A stretch of DNA of 62,071 bases, the filler included, from Candidatus Nezhaarchaeota archaeon WYZ-LMO8 (GTDB taxonomy: Archaea; Thermoproteota; Methanomethylicia; Nezhaarchaeales; WYZ-LMO8), in assembly GCA_004347965.1 (NCBI GenBank). It is 5 parts of 5 records of this genome, joined end to end, with 100 filler letters (N's around TTAATTAATTAA, not from the genome) between each part and the next. Parts side by side here need not be neighbours in the genome. Positions count along the whole stretch, not along the records: positions 13,761 to 27,173 come from QNVF01000034.1; 4 more parts are not named here. One strand, written 5' to 3'. Every line of letters begins with the position of its first letter. Position 1 is the first letter of the stretch. A program made the position numbers and the translations under genes. The notes under the pieces were generated by a model. The model ran no database searches and was not told the origin of the DNA. It saw only the letters and a program-made list of their open reading frames with translations. Below, in pieces: positions 2,726 through 58,996 of the stretch.

Positions 2726-3931
2726 TTGAACTCTCGTTACCATCTAGAGTCTCATACAATCGAGATGCCCAAGGTAATTATTGGAATGCACGCTATTGAG
2801 AAGTTAAGGAATGTAGTGACGTGCTTTGGTAGAAGAGCCTTGATAGTTACTGGAAGAAGCGCGATGGAATCTGGTAGAGTTAAGATCATAGAGGATAAGC
2901 TTAAAGAAGCTGATGTTGACTACGTGATTTATAGCAACGTTAATCCTGAGCCTACTGTAAGTCAGGCTGAAGAACTGGCTAAATACATCAACAAGATAGT
3001 AGAGGGCCCTAACAAGATAGACCTTGTAATAGGCTTTGGAGGCGGTAGCAGCTTAGACATGGCTAAGGTAGCTTCGTTAGCATCAGCAAACCCCAAGCCC
3101 ATAAGGCAGTACATAGGCGTCGAAAAGGTCTCAAGAAAAGGCATTCCACTAATACTTGTACCAACGACTGCCGGTAGTGGTAGTGAGGTCTCCAAGTCGA
3201 TAGTCTTAGCCATAGAGAAGGAGGAGATAAAGGATGCAATAGTGAGCGAAAATGTGATGGCCGACGTGGCTATGGTTGATCCCTATTTAACCACGACTAT
3301 GAACCCTAAGCTCACAGCCATAACTGGAATAGATGCTTTATCCCATGCAATTGAAGCGTATATGTCGCTTAGTGCCAATGGCTTCACGGACCCTCTTGCC
3401 TTAAAGGCCATAAGCCTGGTATCCACGAACTTGCGGAAAGCCTATAGTAATGGAAGTGACATTGAAGCTAGGAAAGCGATGAGCGAAGCTGCCATGCTAG
3501 CTGGACTAGCCTTCAGTAATGCTGGTAACTGTGCTGGTCATGCAGCAGCTTACGCGTTTGCTGTAAAATACAAGGTTCCGCATGGCATGGCTTGTGGCAT
3601 CTCTCTTCCATACGTAATGAAGTTTAACATGCTCGCGATACCTGAAAGGCTTGCTGATGTAGCTGTAGCAATGGGTATTAGAAGTGAAGGACTAAGTATG
3701 AGAGAGCTTGCTCAATTAGCAGTAGCAGAAGTCATAGACTTACTAATGGATCTAGACCTACCTACAACGCTTGAGGAAGTAGGCGTACCAGAAGAGGATG
3801 TTGTTAAACTTTCAGAAAAAATGCTCAAGATTACTAGGTTAATAGAACTAAATCCTAGAAGAATAGGGCCTGAGGAAGCTAGAAAAATCTTTAAAATCAT
3901 GTGGCATGGGGATGTAGAAACAAAAATATGA
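2726..3931 (+). CDS. Iron-containing alcohol dehydrogenase
   Basis: GFGGGSSLD, PTTAGSGSE, DALSHAIE and GH...HG metal ligands. Confidence 0.92.
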   Translation: MNSRYHLESHTIEMPKVIIGMHAIEKLRNVVTCFGRRALIVTGRSAMESGRVKIIEDKLKEADVDYVIYSNVNPEPTVSQAEELAKYINKIVEGPNKIDLVIGFGGGSSLDMAKVASLASANPKPIRQYIGVEKVSRKGIPLILVPTTAGSGSEVSKSIVLAIEKEEIKDAIVSENVMADVAMVDPYLTTTMNPKLTAITGIDALSHAIEAYMSLSANGFTDPLALKAISLVSTNLRKAYSNGSDIEARKAMSEAAMLAGLAFSNAGNCAGHAAAYAFAVKYKVPHGMACGISLPYVMKFNMLAIPERLADVAVAMGIRSEGLSMRELAQLAVAEVIDLLMDLDLPTTLEEVGVPEEDVVKLSEKMLKITRLIELNPRRIGPEEARKIFKIMWHGDVETKI

Positions 3932-13275: not shown

Positions 13276-13660
13276 GTGAAAAAAATGTTAACAGTTTTTG
13301 TTCGCAGGGAGTACAAGGATTTATGTGAGGAAATACGTCGAGTGATCGAAAAGAGTGCTAATAGGTGTGTGGAGGTTGATGTTGTAAATAACCTCGAAGA
13401 ACTCAAGTCTCGCTTAGAGAAGCTTCAAGCTGAAGAGGTGTTTCTCCTCTTTTTTGTAGGACCTAACGTTCTAAGCGAGTTGAAGAAGCTGTGCAGAGAC
13501 GTCAAGTCTCTTGATGAGCTTGTGATGCACGTGACCGGGACCTTTACCAACGAACGCATAGTAATCTTGACCACATCAAGCGATGATGAGAGAGTCCTAT
13601 TGGAGTTCAAAGCTATGTACGAGGTAACGCCGAGACAACTTGACATTTTGAAGGTCACAA
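13276..13660 (+). CDS. Hypothetical protein, 3'-truncated by contig end
   Basis: Open frame runs into the N spacer; upstream AT-rich promoter-like region. Confidence 0.55.
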
Positions 13661-13760
13661 NNNNNNNNNNNNNNNNNNNNNNNNNNNNNNNNNNNNNNNN
13701 NNNNTTAATTAATTAANNNNNNNNNNNNNNNNNNNNNNNNNNNNNNNNNNNNNNNNNNNN
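13661..13760. other. Artificial contig spacer N44-TTAATTAATTAA-N44
   Basis: 100-nt linker with stops in all six frames, repeated identically four times. Confidence 0.98.
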
Positions 13761-13854
13761 ACGTAAAATAATTAGGCAGTAGACGAAAGGTATATATCTG
13801 GAACAATGAGCTAGTTTTTCTTAAACTATCATTTCCTCAACATGAGGGAAAATC

Positions 13855-14901
13855 ATGAGACCTGATGATGATGTTGGTATCATAGGTTATGGTGTTTACA
13901 TTCCAATATACAGGATTAAGACCTCTGAGATAGCTAAAGTTTGGGGTAAGCTTAACGATGATCTTCCAGTTGAAGAGAAAGCTGTTGCAGGACCTGATGA
14001 AGATGCTGTGACAATAGCCATTGAGGCTGCGAAGTATGCCATTAGAAGAGCTGGCATTAGACCCGAAGAGATAGGAGCTGTGTATGTGGGGACGGAGTCT
14101 AAGCCCTATGCAGTTAAGCCTTGTAGCACAATAGTCGCTGAAGCTATAGGTGCAACCCCTAACGTCTTAGCTGCAGACTATGAGTTTGCTTGTAAAGCTG
14201 GTACTGAGGCATTCCAAGCTTCAATAGGTTTAGTGGCTTCAGGGATGGTCGAGTACGCTATGGCTATAGGCGTAGACACCGCTCAAAGTAGACCAGCTGA
14301 TGCACTTGAATACACAAGTGGATCTGGGGGTGGAGCATTCATATTTGCTAAGAAGAACGACGAGACTATAGCGTACGTCGAAGGTAGCTACTCCTTTGTA
14401 ACCGATACTCCAGACTTTTGGAGAAGGGATGGAGAACGATATCCCTATCACATGGGTCGATTTACTGGTGAGCCGGCCTACTTCAGACACACGATCATGG
14501 CGGCTAAAGGCTTAATGTCCGAGTTAGGGTTAAGGCCAAGCGACTTTAGCTATGCTGTCTTCCATCAACCTAACTACAGGTTTCCATTGAAGGCAGCACG
14601 ATACCTTGGCATACCTGATGATAAGGTTAAGCCAAGCCTTGTTTGTTTGAACGTTGGAAACACTTACTCTGGATCATCGATGATAGGTTTAGCTGCTGTT
14701 CTAGACGTGGCTAAGCCTGGAGATAGGATCTTATTGGTATCCTATGGTTCTGGTGCAGGTAGCGATGCATTTAGCTTCGTAGTTCAGGATATCATAGAAG
14801 AGAAGAGGGATAGAGCACCAAAAGTCTCAACGTTCTTGTCGAGAAGAAGGGAAATAAATTATTCACTATATGCGAAGTTCAGAAACAAGATATTAATGTG
14901 A
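13855..14901 (+). CDS. Archaeal hydroxymethylglutaryl-CoA synthase
   Basis: [11 protein letters not shown] (Glu), FACKAGT (Cys), FHQPN (His), [15 protein letters not shown]. Confidence 0.95.
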
Positions 14902-14912
14902 TGTGCTAAGCC

Positions 14913-16076
14913 ATGAGGGAAGTAGCAGTGGTATCGGTAGGCTATACTAGAGTATCAGAGCATTGGGAGAAATCCATTAAGGGTCTATTTGTAGAAGCAG
15001 CGCTCAAAGCTCTTGAAAACGCGGATCTAAGTGTAAGGTCCCTTGACGGAATGTATGTGGCAAACGTCTTTGCTGGGTACCTTCAAGGGCAGACCAATCT
15101 TGCTAATGTTTTAGCTGACAGCCTAGGTGTCTATGACAAGTTCGCTATCTCCATAGATGCTGGAGGGGCATCAGGTGCTCTTGCAATTCATGAAGCATAT
15201 AAGGATGTAGCCCACGGTGTAAGAGATGTAGTAATGGTTTGCGGAGTTGAAAAGATGAGTGAGACGTCACCTCAAGAGGTTGTATCTGCACTGACCTCAG
15301 TTGCAGATCAAGAATACTTAAGGTACACTGGTATAACGGTTCATAGCCTAGCAGCACTAATATACAAGACGTACTTGAGGCGCTTCAATAAAAAGCAGGA
15401 GGACGTTGCATTGATGTCAGTCGTAGATCATGAACATGCTATCACTTGTAGTCATGCTCAGTACCCATTCAAGTTGTCCGTTGAAGCCATAATGAGCTCC
15501 GCTATTTTAGCTGATCCTATAAGGGCTTTGGAGGTCATATCGCCATCAGACGGCTCTGCTGCCATAATCATGTGCCCGCATGAGAAGGCTAAGGAGCTTG
15601 GCTTGTCTCACGTGAAGCTGGTTACTTCTCAGATAGCCCGAGATAAATTCAATCTTATGGAGAGGGATGACTTGCTCTCCATGAAGGCCCTAATTGAAGC
15701 AGCACAGAGAGCTTACAATAGCACCGGTATAACACCATCAGACTTAAGCTTCGTGGAGCTATACGATGACTACTCTGTTATGGGCGTTATTGCTCTCGAA
15801 AAGCTGGGATTATGTGGTCCAGGTGAAGGAGTAGAGCTGCTGAAAAATGGTGAAGTTAAGTTGAGTGGCTCCATACCAGTCAATACCTTCGGTGGTCTTA
15901 AAGCTCGTGGAGCACCTCTAGGCGCGGTCGGCGTGTATCAAGCTGTAGAAGCTTATCTACAATTAACGGGTAATGCAGGTCCAAACCAGGTTAAAAATGC
16001 GAGAATTGGATTAACGCAGACGAGTTGTGGCTTCAACTCCATAGTTGTCATAAACTTGTTCGAGGCGTGTTGCTAA
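14913..16076 (+). CDS. Thiolase-fold protein (acetoacetyl-CoA thiolase homologue) with degenerate active site
   Basis: GVEKMSE, SDGSAA, VNTFGGLKARG thiolase motifs; catalytic positions read AGGASG, ELYDD and GAPLG. Confidence 0.9.
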   Translation: MREVAVVSVGYTRVSEHWEKSIKGLFVEAALKALENADLSVRSLDGMYVANVFAGYLQGQTNLANVLADSLGVYDKFAISIDAGGASGALAIHEAYKDVAHGVRDVVMVCGVEKMSETSPQEVVSALTSVADQEYLRYTGITVHSLAALIYKTYLRRFNKKQEDVALMSVVDHEHAITCSHAQYPFKLSVEAIMSSAILADPIRALEVISPSDGSAAIIMCPHEKAKELGLSHVKLVTSQIARDKFNLMERDDLLSMKALIEAAQRAYNSTGITPSDLSFVELYDDYSVMGVIALEKLGLCGPGEGVELLKNGEVKLSGSIPVNTFGGLKARGAPLGAVGVYQAVEAYLQLTGNAGPNQVKNARIGLTQTSCGFNSIVVINLFEACC

Positions 16077-16471
16077 TGGCAACCTCTGCATACTGGAGGA
16101 CTAGGCTTCAAAGGTATAGACTCATGGGTAATAAGTGCTCTACTTGCAATAAGATATTCTTCCCACCACGGCTCGTATGTCCATACTGCGGGTCAGTGAA
16201 ATTAAGTGAGAGCAAACTTCCTGAGAGAGGCAGATTGGTGGATTACACAGTGGTATACTCTGCACCTGAGTGTTATGAGACAGTAATACCTTATGTTGTA
16301 GGCTTAGTAGAGCTTGAAAACGGGGTTAAGATCGTGGCCCCAATAACCGATGTTGATGTGAATGAGGTCGAAGAGGGCATGGAGGTTGAGTTGACCATAA
16401 GAAGGCTACCAGAGCAGCTTGAAGGAGGTATGATCTGCTATACCTATAAGTTTAGACCAGTAATAAAGTAA
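16076..16471 (+). CDS. DUF35 Zn-ribbon/OB-fold scaffold protein
   Basis: CSTC...FPPRLVCPYCG ribbon, PYVVGLVEL, YTYKFRP; ATG 16076 overlaps the thiolase TAA. Confidence 0.92.
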   Translation: MATSAYWRTRLQRYRLMGNKCSTCNKIFFPPRLVCPYCGSVKLSESKLPERGRLVDYTVVYSAPECYETVIPYVVGLVELENGVKIVAPITDVDVNEVEEGMEVELTIRRLPEQLEGGMICYTYKFRPVIK

Positions 16472-16528
16472 GGTCTTCATAGCTCCTTTTAAGCTGAGGT
16501 TAGTAGATGAGTATATTGGTGCCTTTGA

Positions 16529-17509
16529 GTGCTCAATGCGTCAGTGACTAAGAGCAAGGCAATTTTGATAGGTGAGCACGTAACATGTGATGCACACGAG
16601 GATAATAGAGAAATTAGGATAGTAACACATGCTCACTACGATCACATACTTGGTTTAAGAGAGAGTTTAAGAGAGTGCAGGGTTGTTTACGCTACCACAA
16701 TAACTAAAGACATGCTTAGTGTGCTTTATGGGAAGGGTGCTGAGAAGATTTCAGCATTGAATTATGAGGAGCCGGTAATGGTCGGCGATGAAGTAATGAT
16801 GCTATACCCTGCAAGCCACATACCAGGTTCAGCACAAGTATTAGTTGAAGATGCGAATGGAAGCAGAGTCCTATACACAAGTGACTTTAGACTTCCAGGA
16901 GCACCAGTAATAGAGACCGATATTTTAGTGATAGAAGCAACATATGGGCATCCTAGGTGCATTAGACCTCCAATAGATGAGGTGTATGATGCGTTAACGA
17001 AGTTGGTGAGTAACGATGTTGAGAAGCACCCAATTCACATATACGGTTTCTACGGGAAAGTACAGGAGGTCATGGAGGTATTACGGAGGAGAGGTGTTCA
17101 TGCGCCTTTCTTAGCTGAAGGGAAGATGTATGAGCTAACTATGGTGTGTGTCAAGCATAATCTTAAGGTCGGAGATGTGGTGAATGCTGCTTCAAGAGAG
17201 GGTCTTGAGGTTCTCAAGGGTAACGGAGGTTATGTGTTCTTTAAGCATACATCAAAAATAGGCGAGAACATTAAAGGATTGAAGATACACTTGACTGGAT
17301 GGGAGTTTAACGTTACTCACAGAAAGATCTCCAACAACATGTATAGAGTCTCGCTTAGCAGTCATAGCGACTTCAATCACCTAATCGCTTACGTGGAGGA
17401 TAGTGGACCCAAGAAGGTGATAGTGGACAATAGCAGAGACGGCTTTGGCGTCGAGTTCGCTCATGAAATCAGAAAGAGGTTAAACGTAGAAGCTATCGCA
17501 ATGCCCTAA
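16529..17509 (+). CDS. MBL-fold metallo-hydrolase (beta-CASP exonuclease-like)
   Basis: THAHYDH, HIPGS, YTSDF, EATYG, LSSHSDF. Confidence 0.85.
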   Translation: MLNASVTKSKAILIGEHVTCDAHEDNREIRIVTHAHYDHILGLRESLRECRVVYATTITKDMLSVLYGKGAEKISALNYEEPVMVGDEVMMLYPASHIPGSAQVLVEDANGSRVLYTSDFRLPGAPVIETDILVIEATYGHPRCIRPPIDEVYDALTKLVSNDVEKHPIHIYGFYGKVQEVMEVLRRRGVHAPFLAEGKMYELTMVCVKHNLKVGDVVNAASREGLEVLKGNGGYVFFKHTSKIGENIKGLKIHLTGWEFNVTHRKISNNMYRVSLSSHSDFNHLIAYVEDSGPKKVIVDNSRDGFGVEFAHEIRKRLNVEAIAMP

Positions 17510-17580: not shown

Positions 17581-19317
17581 GTGATGAGCGTAGCCGATAA
17601 GGTAATGGAGCTAGCCAAGAGGAGAGGGTTCTTCTGGATCTCAGCTGAACTCTATGGTGGTGTAAGCGGTTTCCTAGACTTTGGACCACTAGGCAAGCTA
17701 CTTAAAAGAAAGATAGAGGAGAAATGGCGCTACTGGTTTGTCCTGAAGAACCAGGAGTTTGTTGTTGAAATCGAGACGCCAGTCATAACTCCTTACAAGG
17801 TTTTCGAGGCTTCAGGTCACGTAGGGCATTTCACAGATTACATGGTTGAATGCTTAAAGTGTGGAAGGAAGTTTAGAGCAGATCACGTAATAGAAGAACA
17901 GACCGGGCTTAGTGGACTTGAAGGATTAAGTGAGGAACAGCTGACATCAATAATTACTGAAAGAAATGTTAAGTGTCCTGAGTGTGGAGGTCAGCTGGGT
18001 ACGGTCAAGAAGTTCAACCTATTGTTTCAAACTACGATAGGTCCATACAGCGAGAACGTGGGATTCGCTAGACCTGAAGCTGCTCAAGGGATGTTCACGA
18101 CATTTAATAGAGTCTACAACGTCATGAGGAATAAGCTGCCATTGGGTATAGCCCAGATAGGCAAGGTAATGAGGAACGAAATCTCTCCTAGACAAGGTCC
18201 CATAAGGCTTAGGGAGTTCACTATAATGGAGCTTGAGTTGTTCTATGACCCTCAAGAGCCATCTTGCCACGTGCTAGATAAGAACGAAGTTCTTAGACTG
18301 GTCCCTGAAGATAGCGTCGCTAAGAAGGATTTGACCCCTCTAGAGGTTACCGTTGAGGAGGCATTGAGAAAAAGATTGGTAGCATGTGAGTGGCTTGCGT
18401 ATTTCATGGTATTAGCTCAAAAGTTTGTTCAGGAGCTTGGAATCCCATGGGATAAGCAGATGTTCGTTGCTAAGCTACCTCAAGAGAGAGCTCACTACGC
18501 AACGCAAGTCTACGATCAGGTTGTAAAGCTTGAGAAGTGGGGTTGGATTGAAGTTTCAGGGCACGCGTTCAGAACTGATTACGACTTGAGGGGGCACATG
18601 GCGTCAAGCGGAGAAGATCTGAGAGTCTATAAGCAGTTCCAGTCTGAGGTTGAAGTTGAAGAGGTTGAAGTGAGACCTTTGGTAGACGCGATAAAAGAAG
18701 ACTACGAGACTGATGCCTCCGCAATAATCAATGCATTGAAAATGATGCCGGGAGAGAGGGTGCTTGAAGAGATTAAGAGTAAAGGCTTCTTTGAAATGGG
18801 AGGATATAGAATTTACCCCAAGCACGTTAGCTTTGAGAAGGTTAAGAAAAATGTCAAAGGGAGGAAGTTCATACCGTTCGTTGCTGAGCCATCGTTTGGG
18901 GCTGAGAGACTCGTTTACGCATCTATGGAGTATGCGTATAGAGAAAAAGATGGTAGAGTGATATTATCGTTTCCACCGGACATAGCTCCAATAGAAGCTG
19001 TGGTTCTACCACTAGTGAATCGAGATGGTCTTCCAGAAAAGGCTAGAGAGATCTACGGTATGCTAAGCTTTAGAGGGCTGGTGGTAGAATACGATGATTC
19101 AGGGTCTATAGGAAGGAGGTATGCGAGGGCTGACGAAGTTGGTGTTCCGCTTGCAATAACTGTTGACTACCAAACACTGAGGGATGACACCGTAACTGTA
19201 CGAGATAGGGATACTTGGAAGCAAGTAAGGGTTAGGATAGAAAAGTTGCCTGAGATCGTTGAAGTATATATTAAGAGACGAGAGTTAAAAGAACCTTTAA
19301 AGAAACTTTTTGAGTAA
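17581..19317 (+). CDS. glyS: Glycine--tRNA ligase (alpha2 type)
   Basis: RRGFF...YGG, RPEAAQG, RNEISPRQGPIRLREF, EPSFG, SIGRRYARADEVG anticodon domain. Confidence 0.97.
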   Translation: MMSVADKVMELAKRRGFFWISAELYGGVSGFLDFGPLGKLLKRKIEEKWRYWFVLKNQEFVVEIETPVITPYKVFEASGHVGHFTDYMVECLKCGRKFRADHVIEEQTGLSGLEGLSEEQLTSIITERNVKCPECGGQLGTVKKFNLLFQTTIGPYSENVGFARPEAAQGMFTTFNRVYNVMRNKLPLGIAQIGKVMRNEISPRQGPIRLREFTIMELELFYDPQEPSCHVLDKNEVLRLVPEDSVAKKDLTPLEVTVEEALRKRLVACEWLAYFMVLAQKFVQELGIPWDKQMFVAKLPQERAHYATQVYDQVVKLEKWGWIEVSGHAFRTDYDLRGHMASSGEDLRVYKQFQSEVEVEEVEVRPLVDAIKEDYETDASAIINALKMMPGERVLEEIKSKGFFEMGGYRIYPKHVSFEKVKKNVKGRKFIPFVAEPSFGAERLVYASMEYAYREKDGRVILSFPPDIAPIEAVVLPLVNRDGLPEKAREIYGMLSFRGLVVEYDDSGSIGRRYARADEVGVPLAITVDYQTLRDDTVTVRDRDTWKQVRVRIEKLPEIVEVYIKRRELKEPLKKLFE

Positions 19318-27173: not shown

Positions 27174-27273
27174 NNNNNNNNNNNNNNNNNNNNNNNNNNN
27201 NNNNNNNNNNNNNNNNNTTAATTAATTAANNNNNNNNNNNNNNNNNNNNNNNNNNNNNNNNNNNNNNNNNNNN
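27174..27273. other. Artificial contig spacer
   Basis: N44-TTAATTAATTAA-N44. Confidence 0.98.
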
Positions 27274-38638: not shown

Positions 38639-39093
38639 GTGGGATTTTTGTCTAAAGCCATAGATGTACTGAGAGACGAAAAAGTTCAAAGACTACTTAG
38701 GATTATAAGGGATAAGAGGATTGAGCTCATAGAGCCTAAAGTAGAGTTTAACTTTGCAGTCAAGTACCCTGTACTCGATGATGCTAATATCCCTCCTGAA
38801 GAGGTCATAAAATCTCTCTCAGCACTAACTGAGGCTGGAATATTGATTTCAGATGTTGTGGATAACGTTGTCGTGTGTCCACACTGCTTCTCTCATAGAC
38901 TTATGATTAATGTTCGCTGCCCCTCATGCCATTCATCAAGGCTAGTCATGGGGAGAATGATAGAACACATGACCTGCGGGCACATCGACTTCGAGGAGAG
39001 GTTTAAGAGCGAAGAAGGCTTATTCTGTCCAAACTGTAAGAAGCCGCTTAACCAACTTGGCGTAGACTACAAGGTCTTCAGCTCCCTCTACAG
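38639..39093 (+). CDS. TackOD1 (thaumarchaeal output domain)-like Zn-finger protein, 3'-truncated
   Basis: CPHC, CPSC, IEHMTCGH, CPNCKKPL..LGVDY. Confidence 0.75.
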
Positions 39094-39193
39094 NNNNNNN
39101 NNNNNNNNNNNNNNNNNNNNNNNNNNNNNNNNNNNNNTTAATTAATTAANNNNNNNNNNNNNNNNNNNNNNNNNNNNNNNNNNNNNNNNNNNN
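39094..39193. other. Artificial contig spacer
   Basis: N44-TTAATTAATTAA-N44. Confidence 0.98.
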
Positions 39194-50588: not shown

Positions 50589-50688
50589 NNNNNNNNNNNN
50601 NNNNNNNNNNNNNNNNNNNNNNNNNNNNNNNNTTAATTAATTAANNNNNNNNNNNNNNNNNNNNNNNNNNNNNNNNNNNNNNNNNNNN
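50589..50688. other. Artificial contig spacer
   Basis: N44-TTAATTAATTAA-N44. Confidence 0.98.
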
Positions 50689-56814: not shown

Positions 56815-58227
56815 TTGTCGATTCCGCTATCAGCATTTAAGGCGAGGAAGTACAGGACAGTAAGCGAAATTTCAGGACCCTTACTAATAGTTAAAAACGT
56901 TAATGATGCAGCTTACAATGAGCTGGTTAAGGTTGAAACCGGAAGCGGAGAAATGAGGTCAGGAGTCGTCTTAGAGAGTGCTGACGGATATGCAGTCGTC
57001 CAAGTGTTCGAAGGCACGAGTGGTCTCGATATTGAGAGGACAGCGGTTACTTTCCTAGGTGAGACATTAAAGGTTCCAGTTTCCATGGAAATGCTTGGAA
57101 GGATATTTGATGGTAAGGGTCAACCAATAGACGGGGGTCCACCAATAATACCTGAAGAGGAGCTTGATGTCTATGGTTCACCAATAAATCCATCAGCACG
57201 TGAATATCCTAAAGAGTTTATTCAGACTGGGATAAGTGTGATAGATGGTATGAATACTTTAAGCAGAGGTCAGAAACTACCAATTTTTACTGAAGCAGGG
57301 CTCCCTCACAACATCCTCGCTGCGCAAATAGCTCGCCAAGCTACCATTCCGGGTAAGGAGGAGGAGTTCGCTATAGTCTTCGCAGCGATAGGGATAACAG
57401 CTGAAGAAGCCATGTTCTTTAGGAACGAGTTCGTAAGGACAGGGGCTATAGAGAGGCTTGTAACTTTCTTAAACTTAGCTGAAAACCCAGCCATAGAGCG
57501 TGTAATTACCCCCCACGTAGCTCTAACAGTAGCTGAGTACCTTGCTTTTGAGCACGACATGCATTTATTAGTAATAATGACGGACATGTTGAATTACGGC
57601 GAAGCTCTTCGAGAGATAAGTGCTGCAAGAGCTGAAGTACCTGGTAGAAGAGGTTACCCTGGTTACCTTTACACGTCTCTAGCTCAAATTTATGAGAGGT
57701 GTGGAAGAATCCGTGGAAGAAAGGGCTCAATAACCCTCATACCTGTAGTTACAATGCCTGGAGGCGACATCACTCACCCGGTCGTCGATTTAACGGGTTA
57801 CATAACTGAAGGTCAGCTGATAATGAGCAGAGAGCTGCATCGTAAGGGCATATATCCACCATTAAACCCTCTACCATCATTAAGTAGGTTAATGAAGGAA
57901 GCAACCAGGTATACTAGGAAGGATCATATGCAGTTAAGCGACATGCTCTACTACTGCTATAGCGAGGCTCAAGACCTAAGAAGTCTCGTGGCTGTTGTGG
58001 GGGAGGAGGCATTAACTGAGAGGGATAAGGCTTACCTAGCTTTTGGTGATGCTTTTGAGAGACGTTTTATAAATCAAGGTGTCTACGAAAATAGAAGCCT
58101 TGATACAACGCTTGAAATAGCGTGGAACCTACTAATCGAGTACATACCAGAGTCTGAGTGGAAGCGCTTAGATCCTGAAGTAATAAAAGCTTATTGCCCG
58201 AAGTATCGGAAAGAGAAGTCTAGCTAG
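56815..58227 (+). CDS. atpB: A/V-type ATP synthase subunit B
   Basis: [39 protein letters not shown]. Confidence 0.97.
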
Positions 58228-58996
58228 ATCTTCTCATCCTTTTCTTACCACCTGCATGAACTCCATCGACTATTTCCCTGAGCTTCTTTTCTATATCATT
58301 GCCCTCCAGTATAGTCCCAGTTACGATAATGTCAGCTCCTGCTTCAGCCAAGGCTTCAGCTTGCTCTCTTCGCTTTATCCCTCCACCCACAACTAGTCTT
58401 ACGCTAACTTGGCTTCTCACGTACCTCACAGTATCTGGTGGAACAGGCTCTGAAACACCAGATCCTCCCTCAATGTAGACGTACCTCATGCCTAAGTACT
58501 GTGCAGCTAGTGCATAGAGAGTTATGACCTCAGCTTTATGTGGTGGTATAGGTCTCGCTTGACCAACTATACCTACAGTCCCACCATCACCTACAACGAT
58601 GTAACCCATGGGCAACGTTTCTAGACCATACTTCTTAACTATAGCTGCTCCTTGAACTTGAGCTCCTATTATGAAGTAGGGGTTCAGAGAGTTTAAGAGC
58701 GACATAAACCATATAGCGTCAGCGTAACGACTTATGGTGTTGACATTGCTTGGAAAGTTTATGACCGGTAAATCGCAGTTCTCCTTGATTATCTTTATCA
58801 GATCGTCCATCAAGCTCTCGTTTACGTTTAAGCTTCCACCAACCATTATAGCTGTACTCCCAGAGTCCTCTATTATCCTCACTAACTTAGCAGTCTCTGT
58901 AGGCGTTAGCTTCTCAGGATCGAGAAGCGATATGTGTATTGATCCTTTAGCTTCTATCTCGTCGTTAAGATACTTTTCCACTTTCACCGCTTTCAC
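58220..58996 (-). CDS. Geranylgeranylglyceryl phosphate synthase
   Basis: [34 protein letters not shown]. Confidence 0.93.

Follow-up and report, generated by a model that had tools for sequence, protein, structure and literature searches.

What does a thiolase contribute to its operon once each of the residues that would make it a thiolase has been replaced? The question is raised by a gene in a 62,071-nucleotide stretch of DNA from the hot-spring archaeon Candidatus Nezhaarchaeota archaeon WYZ-LMO8 (assembly GCA_004347965.1), referred to here as the window. The gene lies between those for 3-hydroxy-3-methylglutaryl-coenzyme A (HMG-CoA) synthase (HMGCS) and a DUF35 protein. A complex of thiolase, HMGCS and DUF35 protein is the accepted starting point of archaeal isoprenoid lipids, and it hands acetoacetyl-CoA directly to the synthase, thereby beating the unfavourable equilibrium of the thiolase reaction. 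In the window, the thiolase-like protein (P0001) carries Gly, Tyr and Ala (hereafter G/Y/A) at the three catalytic positions 85, 284 and 334. Our preferred reading, to which we assign a probability of roughly 60%, is that it is a pseudo-enzyme kept as a structural and CoA-binding partner of HMGCS, with acetoacetyl-CoA provided by stand-alone thiolases.

Both the kinship of this protein to thiolases and the loss of its catalytic residues emerge from alignment (phmmer) to solved archaeal thiolases, of which 7yvy_A matched at E 3.7e-83 and 6esq_A at E 3.4e-65 with 32% identity. IDAGGASG stands opposite IEAACASG, which puts Gly85 at the nucleophilic Cys (CxS) position; ELYDD stands opposite EVHD[AC], which puts Tyr284 at the His of HDxF; and GAPLGAVG stands opposite GHP[VL]GATG, which puts Ala334 at the His of GHx. 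The Gly85 codon is two base changes away from TGY and the Ala334 codon three away from CAY. The first-pass annotation of this DNA, made from the sequence alone, had called all three substitutions at these codons, and the alignments to archaeal structures agree. Pfam recognizes Thiolase_C_1 (129 bits) and Thiolase_N (58 bits) in the protein, which stays below the cut-offs of NF004720 (378.5 vs 420) and of NF053570, the family of archaeal HMGCS-complex acetoacetyl-CoA thiolases (307.9 vs 600). Its AF2 model is confident (predicted local distance difference test, pLDDT, 87.8; predicted template modelling score, pTM, 0.91), and Foldseek superposes it on 6et9_C and 6esq_A with template modelling (TM) scores of 0.95–0.96 and a root-mean-square deviation of 1.6 Å. 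The protein has the fold, homology and gene context of an HMGCS-complex thiolase and lacks its three defining catalytic features. Thiolase-like genes of this kind are currently annotated as acetyl-CoA acetyltransferase, an annotation on which the finding bears.

The two partners show no such losses. HMGCS scores 551.4 bits against the archaeal HMG-CoA synthase family TIGR00748 (cut-off 353) and matches 6esq_I at E 9.9e-131. Its residues E81, C113, H237 and N269 are invariant in all 22 HMGCS sequences of alignment A2 and align with E82, C114, H238 and N270, which PMC12960953 gives as the catalytic tetrad of the Methanothermococcus thermolithotrophicus enzyme. The DUF35 protein combines a zinc ribbon with an oligonucleotide/oligosaccharide-binding (OB) fold (zf-ChsH2, 45.9 bits; OB_ChsH2_C, 58.5 bits), and C21, C24, C35 and C38 are invariant in 19/19 sequences (alignment A3). 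The order HMGCS, thiolase-like gene, DUF35 is shared by the window and all six genomes of its clade (G001, G002, G180, G187, G225 and G255). The thiolase-like open reading frame (ORF) is full-length with no internal stops, and its stop codon overlaps the DUF35 start. Two earlier claims, that the thiolase-like gene is complete and coupled to DUF35 and that the adjoining HMGCS keeps its Glu/Cys/His triad, thus stand.

Several lines of evidence indicate that the substitutions are real and maintained. G/Y/A is found in 18/18 close proteins (P0001–P0018: the query and its 17 closest clusters, 70–100% identical, some with the NCBI names Nezhaarchaeota or Nezhaarchaeales), beyond which the next relatives are just 48% identical. 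The operon gene of each of the six clade genomes, which belong to the same phylum, has the same residues. By the Nei-Gojobori method, the ratio of nonsynonymous to synonymous substitution rates (dN/dS) of the thiolase-like gene is 0.071 between the window and G187 (dS 0.63) and 0.092 between G255 and G225, deeper pairs being saturated at synonymous sites; the corresponding values are 0.097 and 0.115 for DUF35, and 0.033 and 0.070 for HMGCS. The thiolase-like gene is under strong purifying selection. Contigs from a hot-spring DNA run of a separate study (X11) match positions 13780–16037 with 0 and 1 differences. Contigs from a metatranscriptome library (X13), derived from a strain 95–99% similar, tile positions 14770–16573 and retain Cys387 (the change at 16073 is synonymous); such contigs cannot show transcription, as DNA was possibly present, and give a weak hint of expression. 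Since G/Y/A recurs in 18/18 proteins and six genomes and dN/dS is 0.07–0.09, the gene is neither an error nor in decay. With a full-length ORF, a confident model and matching contigs from the DNA runs of other studies besides, an artefact or decaying pseudogene can hardly be entertained. The first-pass annotation had proposed checking whether orthologues share the Cys-to-Gly and His-to-Ala changes under purifying selection, and they do.

Table 1 Coordinates of the HMGCS operon and of residues discussed in the text (positions in the window).
Feature	Position	Strand	Remarks
HMG-CoA synthase (HMGCS)	13855..14901	+	348 aa; catalytic tetrad intact
Thiolase-fold protein P0001, thiolase catalytic residues replaced	14913..16076	+	387 aa
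Gly85 codon GGG, nucleophilic Cys position, preceded by Gly84	15165..15167	+	phmmer alignments and codon check
Y284-D285-D286-Y287 in place of H-D-x-F	15762..15773	+	invariant in 23/23 clade sequences
Tyr284 codon TAC	15762..15764	+	
Ala334 codon GCA in place of His of G-H-P	15912..15914	+	phmmer alignments and codon check
Cys372, clade-specific and invariant	16026..16028	+	replaces a Gly 95% conserved in intact operon thiolases
Cys386-Cys387, C-terminal, clade-specific and invariant	16068..16073	+	
TAATG overlap of thiolase-like stop and DUF35 start	16074..16078	+	TAA 16074–16076; ATG 16076–16078
DUF35 scaffold protein	16076..16471	+	131 aa; zinc ribbon and OB fold

How far does this state extend beyond the window's clade? 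We drew on 300 genomes of the phylum to which G001 belongs, of which 240 had an archaeal HMGCS match, and took the HMGCS neighbourhood from 136 chosen non-randomly (the 30 best HMGCS scorers, the 30 most similar to a Cys-less query, and 80 from the 150 best-scoring HMGCS places listed). A thiolase-like gene stood beside HMGCS in 117 of these 136 genomes. The Cys was kept in 60 (57 with C/H/H and 3 with C/H/N at positions 85/284/334) and absent from 57: D/H/N in 16 genomes, E/H/H in 12, G/Y/A in 6, D/H/H in 6, G/H/H in 5 and rarer types in 12. Proteins 74–85% identical to one D/H/N operon protein bear the names Pyrobaculum aerophilum, P. ferrireducens and P. neutrophilum at NCBI and remoter relatives those of Thermoproteus and Caldivirga, all that were checked having Asp and Asn at the two positions; relatives of a G/H/H protein carry the names Caldarchaeum, Calditenuaceae or Nitrososphaerota. 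A Bathyarchaeia-like type with S/(H or Q)/N directly follows HMGCS in 12/12 metagenome loci that extend upstream. Across two protein searches, only 83 of 260 homologues had C/H/H. Judged by these sequences, the window protein is one extreme member of a widespread Cys-less state.

The first-pass annotation had proposed an undescribed variant of the entry to the mevalonate pathway. We found no description of Cys-less thiolases in archaeal HMGCS operons in full-text literature, whose coverage leaves out most subscription journals; the variant is not particular to this genome, given the 57 of 117 HMGCS-linked genes without the Cys. What we describe is a Cys-less variant of the known HMGCS complex that is widespread rather than unique and apparently undescribed in the searchable literature.

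Two side observations concern this survey. In the remaining 19 of the 136 genomes, HMGCS had no thiolase within ~1.8 kb (loci include L158, L167, L168, L170–L172, L175, L176, L185, L188 and L190) and DUF35 adjoined HMGCS in 12 of the 19; the thiolase-like partner may there be encoded elsewhere or dispensed with. Separately, six genomes have two dissimilar Cys-less thiolase-like genes in a conserved tandem, with the motifs V[FY]VGGG[TS]G and V---[SA][NG]D (L241/L243 in G012, L258/L264 in G028, L259/L263 in G060, L257/L261 in G100, L260/L262 in G147 and L240/L242 in G275). Within the short stretches examined, a DUF35 gene lies next to the pair in half of these genomes (G012, G100 and G275), and the tandem looks like another uncharacterized thiolase-fold heteromer.

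Phylogeny suggests the order in which the catalytic residues went. In an IQ-TREE analysis (LG+C20, 56 rows, two long rows excluded), the G/Y/A clade has support of 100/100 and a long stem (0.75), and it is nested in a 28-row group that is Cys-less throughout and includes Caldarchaeales-like operon genes, Bathyarchaeia-like proteins and G275 with P0124; this group is supported at 92/93 (86 in a quick tree), which is not decisive. On a FastTree phylogeny of 159 rows, a minimum of 3 changes between Cys and no Cys among the 118 operon rows contrasts with at least 15 changes of residue at position 85, where the Cys-less lineages have D, E, G, S, T, Q or L. Because the Cys/no-Cys changes are few, the residue changes many and the G/Y/A clade nested in a Cys-less group, the nucleophile was likely lost long ago, position 85 then drifted freely, and both His were lost later on the stem of the window's clade. 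The variety at position 85 argues against one new catalytic role for this residue.

Divided by the HMGCS distance, the thiolase distance comes to a median of 1.72 for the 15 pairs within the G/Y/A clade and 1.68 for the 163 pairs from other Cys-less lineages, against 0.96 for the 308 pairs from lineages whose thiolase is intact, the pairs being non-independent throughout; constraint is partly relaxed, as expected once catalysis is lost. The 23 clade sequences share an invariant residue of their own at twelve positions where 57 intact operon thiolases are at least 90% conserved for another (E82D, A84G, C85G, T116S, D117E, A130V, N179C, P210S, H284Y, F287Y, H334A and G372C), and by sequence position most of them lie within or beside catalytic motifs. 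At a further 35 positions, conservation reaches 90% or more in each of the three groups (intact, Cys-less and G/Y/A); among them are Q60, K114, Y154, H173, D213, R251, E282, D285, E296, N324, K330 and Q350.

If the operon thiolase is dead, where might acetoacetyl-CoA come from? HMG-CoA reductase is encoded in 5/5 clade genomes, and HMG-CoA is therefore needed; together with a PcrB-family lipid gene (similar to geranylgeranylglyceryl phosphate synthase) at 58223–58996 (−) of the window, its presence in relatives indicates that the pathway is in use. We sought extra thiolases with Pfam Thiolase_C_1 in 21 genomes with a Cys-less operon gene and 10 with an intact one. Each of the 21 former encoded one or more additional thiolases in which Cys, HDCF and GHP are retained, mostly adjoining a DUF35 gene of their own, and in 8 of the 10 latter the operon thiolase was the sole match. 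In all six genomes of the window's clade, thiolase/DUF35 pairs outside the operon keep Cys, HDCF and GHP; one stand-alone type is present in 5/6 and a second in 4/6, and these thiolases group with HDCF-type operon thiolases of another lineage (support 99–100). According to a preprint, archaeal genomes carry several ketothiolase/DUF35 pairs each, and a fatty-acid synthase complex of Sulfolobus acidocaldarius is mediated by DUF35 (10.1101/2024.07.05.601840). Pairs of this sort would presumably give acetoacetyl-CoA as their first product. The earlier suggestion that acetoacetyl-CoA comes from elsewhere fits the intact separate thiolases of 6/6 relatives, and it is in relatives only that these are seen.

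One genome offers a further trio. In G187, the closest relative, locus L111 (G187:C1:896312-899752; ORFs 778–1953, 1958–2992 and 3003–3431) encodes a thiolase that keeps Cys, HDCF and GHP, a protein resembling HMGS that lacks all of E/C/H/N and is 29% identical to the window's HMGCS, and a DUF35 protein. The trio sits just past a fragmentary ORF resembling 3-hydroxyacyl-CoA dehydrogenase, and its counterpart would be expected ~8–10 kb beyond the 3' end of the window if synteny held.

These strands can be joined into a tentative account of the locus. The gene product would descend from the operon's acetoacetyl-CoA thiolase but have lost catalysis; it would be retained because HMGCS and DUF35 still need it as a third architectural subunit, and it would probably form half of the complex's shared CoA-binding site. 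Stand-alone thiolase/DUF35 pairs encoded elsewhere would supply acetoacetyl-CoA as a free intermediate, which HMGCS would condense with acetyl-CoA. The account supposes that the trio still assembles, that the subunit binds CoA while being inactive, and that the window's genome has an extra thiolase, all of which we infer. Mutants described in PMC12960953 bear on Tyr284: with H284A the M. thermolithotrophicus complex no longer formed HMG-CoA, and with H294Y a Pseudomonas homologue lost nearly all thiolysis. The same source describes the bacterial PhlABC and MucABC enzymes as retaining an inactive HMGS-like subunit, and their catalytic subunit as insufficient by itself; by analogy, this architecture offers a precedent for keeping a subunit that is dead. 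The predicted complex of HMGCS, DUF35 and the thiolase-like protein reached a median score of 0.74, and 0.64 when an unrelated protein replaced HMGCS, values that speak neither for nor against binding. The first-pass annotation had likewise read the protein as a non-catalytic scaffold or CoA-binding partner, or as part of a complex with different chemistry; catalytic residues that have gone while purifying selection persists favour such a reading, and sequence cannot separate a scaffold from different chemistry.

Other observations weigh against retention as an inactive partner. The association between a Cys-less operon gene and extra thiolases comprises just two phylogenetically independent contrasts and cannot reach significance, and the naive Fisher p of 5.7e-6 overstates it for that reason. 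A tblastn search of the 62-kb window with 40-odd thiolase paralogues found no second thiolase, returning the gene itself and weak cross-matches to HMGCS. The dN/dS of the thiolase-like gene, low like that of DUF35, is also compatible with an enzyme. What the clade has fixed is a specific rather than a random set of residues (G84-G85, Y284, D286, Y287 and C372), and the active aldolase CtSal likewise combines a Gly with Y-D-x-Y. The clade has also acquired five invariant Cys and three invariant His (C110, H144, C179, H223, H233, C372, C386 and C387) that occur in <5% of other operon thiolases; they may make up a metal site, may be joined in disulfides, or may be without significance.

Such fixed residues invite the main rival idea, a site rewired for aldolase- or lyase-type chemistry. 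A 3-hydroxyacyl-CoA would then be the substrate, Tyr284 the base and either Asp286 or Tyr287 the acid, in the manner of the DUF35-dependent steroid aldolases Ltp2 and Sal; the target could be HMG-CoA or a related C–C bond, alongside HMGCS. We consider this rather unlikely, even with Gly85, Y284-D-D-Y287 and Ala334 invariant throughout the clade, strong selection on the gene, a DUF35 partner as in Ltp2 and Sal, and matches to Ltp2 (6ok1_A) in both sequence (E 7.2e-24) and fold (TM 0.85). In CtSal, as described in PMC12329534, the nucleophile is replaced by Gly, Tyr302 and Cys304 of a Y-D-C-Y motif are catalytic, and Gln352, a non-His residue, occupies the site of Tyr344 in TcLtp2; the latter has Y-D-H-F and Tyr344 as its second Tyr. 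The window protein, however, lacks the second catalytic residue of either: it has neither the Cys of Y-D-C-Y nor a Tyr where Ala334 stands, a residue matched to Tyr344 by spacing only. Because its clade is nested among operon thiolase-like proteins that vary at position 284 (His in 86% of 51 other Cys-less sequences, otherwise F, Q, M, S or R), Tyr284 appears as one of many replacements. Its gene context is HMGCS and a free-standing DUF35 rather than a hydratase, and it evolves ~1.7 times faster relative to HMGCS, as do other Cys-less lineages. A bolder form of this idea, which we regard as a long shot, makes the G/Y/A protein a new thiolase-fold C–C lyase or aldolase within the HMGCS complex, acting on a 3-hydroxyacyl-CoA through Gly85, Tyr284, Asp286 and Tyr287, with Cys372 nearby; one possibility is that HMG-CoA is made or cleaved by an HMG-CoA-lyase-type reaction. 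If so, these archaea would enter the mevalonate pathway, or control it, in a way not yet described.

Cys372 also underlies the idea that the nucleophile has moved, this or another new Cys replacing Cys85 so that the complex still makes acetoacetyl-CoA. The change from Gly to Cys is clade-specific and invariant, and in the AF2 model residue 372 ends strand 365–372, followed by the loop between the last two strands. This loop we take to be the one that bears the second catalytic Cys in classical thiolases, and by motif register Cys372 presumably lies one residue past that Cys. The first-pass annotation had named a Cys in this loop (TSCG), together with a His in the active site, as what would overturn its reading: the Cys is there, and no compensating His was found at catalytic positions, both catalytic His having been lost. 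Other Cys-less operon lineages have no Cys in the loop yet keep the gene, and extra intact thiolases are present in all six clade genomes; a relocated nucleophile is accordingly highly improbable in our view. Pseudo-enzymes often turn into regulators, and a dead pocket that binds acetyl-CoA, acetoacetyl-CoA or CoA could tune HMGCS. The many polar positions conserved in all groups would suit such a sensor, which by sequence is hard to tell from the CoA-binding partner we favour; we judge it decidedly unlikely.

Should retention of a dead partner prove correct, direct transfer of acetoacetyl-CoA from subunit to subunit cannot operate, the acetoacetyl-CoA must derive from a free pool made by other thiolases, and the complex exists for another reason, such as CoA binding, stability or regulation. 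The nucleophile is absent from roughly half of the HMGCS-linked genes that we surveyed in the phylum, including proteins that NCBI names for cultured Pyrobaculum. The finding matters for metabolic models of uncultured archaea and for how pseudo-enzymes are retained in multi-enzyme assemblies.

Elsewhere in the window, two further genes downstream of the trio (16529–17509 and 17581–19317) are kept in the window, L001 and L002. One is metallo-beta-lactamase/beta-CASP-like, with a weak match to a ligase-associated exonuclease family (84.5 bits vs 325), and the other is class-II tRNA synthetase-like, HGTP_anticodon being the only domain matched. The window also encodes CofD of F420 biosynthesis (1564–2505, −) and a TackOD1 output-domain protein (38639–39145, +). 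Eight runs of 44 N occur in four pairs, with 12 bases inside each pair and ~11.5–13.5 kb between pairs (13661–13704 and 13717–13760; 27174–27217 and 27230–27273; 39094–39137 and 39150–39193; 50589–50632 and 50645–50688). The first pair falls within the 3' end of ORF 13276–13716, just upstream of HMGCS, and the runs look like masked, non-biological stretches.

Among known systems, the M. thermolithotrophicus complex (PDB 6ESQ, 6ET9) is the closest, sharing with the window the thiolase fold, the three-gene set, an intact HMGCS and a zinc-ribbon DUF35. It differs in its thiolase, whose Cys85, His284 and His334 are Gly, Tyr and Ala in the window protein. Because these residues are replaced and the protein falls below the NCBIfam cut-off, the window's complex cannot channel acetoacetyl-CoA of its own making as that of M. 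thermolithotrophicus does. ST0096 of Sulfolobus tokodaii (PDB 4YZO) is another archaeal thiolase fold without the nucleophile (Ser at the Cys position; TM 0.86); unlike the window protein, it keeps both His and resembles a stand-alone thiolase/DUF35 type (such as L134 of G256) rather than an HMGCS-linked one. Ltp2 (PDB 6OK1), Sal and the SCP2-thiolase-like TbSLP (PDB 5AB4-7) also have a thiolase fold without the nucleophilic Cys, and a Tyr for the His of H-D-x-F (Y-D-H-F, Y-D-C-Y and Y-D-C-F among them, Y-D-D-Y in the window). They are distant in sequence (5ab4_A at E 1e-14, beside the 6ok1_A match given above), and Ltp2 and Sal occur in a steroid hydratase context with the second catalytic residue that the window protein lacks. 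The window's clade falls outside the aldolase clade, having arisen within the archaeal operon thiolase lineage.

A parallel for a dead subunit lies in bacteria. The first-pass annotation had called the trio homologous to PhlABC, and matches of 5m3k_A to HMGCS (E 7.7e-60) and of 5m3k_C to the thiolase-like protein (E 2.5e-27) agree. The Friedel-Crafts acyltransferases PhlABC and MucABC and the Pseudomonas fluorescens ACAT/HMGS-DUF35 system are homologous tripartite assemblies that retain one dead thiolase-superfamily subunit (PMC12960953). The window protein is not of the PhlC/MucB type, in which Cys and GHx are kept and the HMGS-like partner is dead. It is the reverse: PhlABC and MucABC have a dead HMGS-like subunit beside an ACAT-like one with its Cys in place, according to the same paper, whereas in the window the HMGS is intact and the ACAT-like subunit dead. 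Both arrangements occur within the window's own clade, where the L111 trio of G187 is of the bacterial PhlABC/PfACAT kind and the mirror image of the window's operon.

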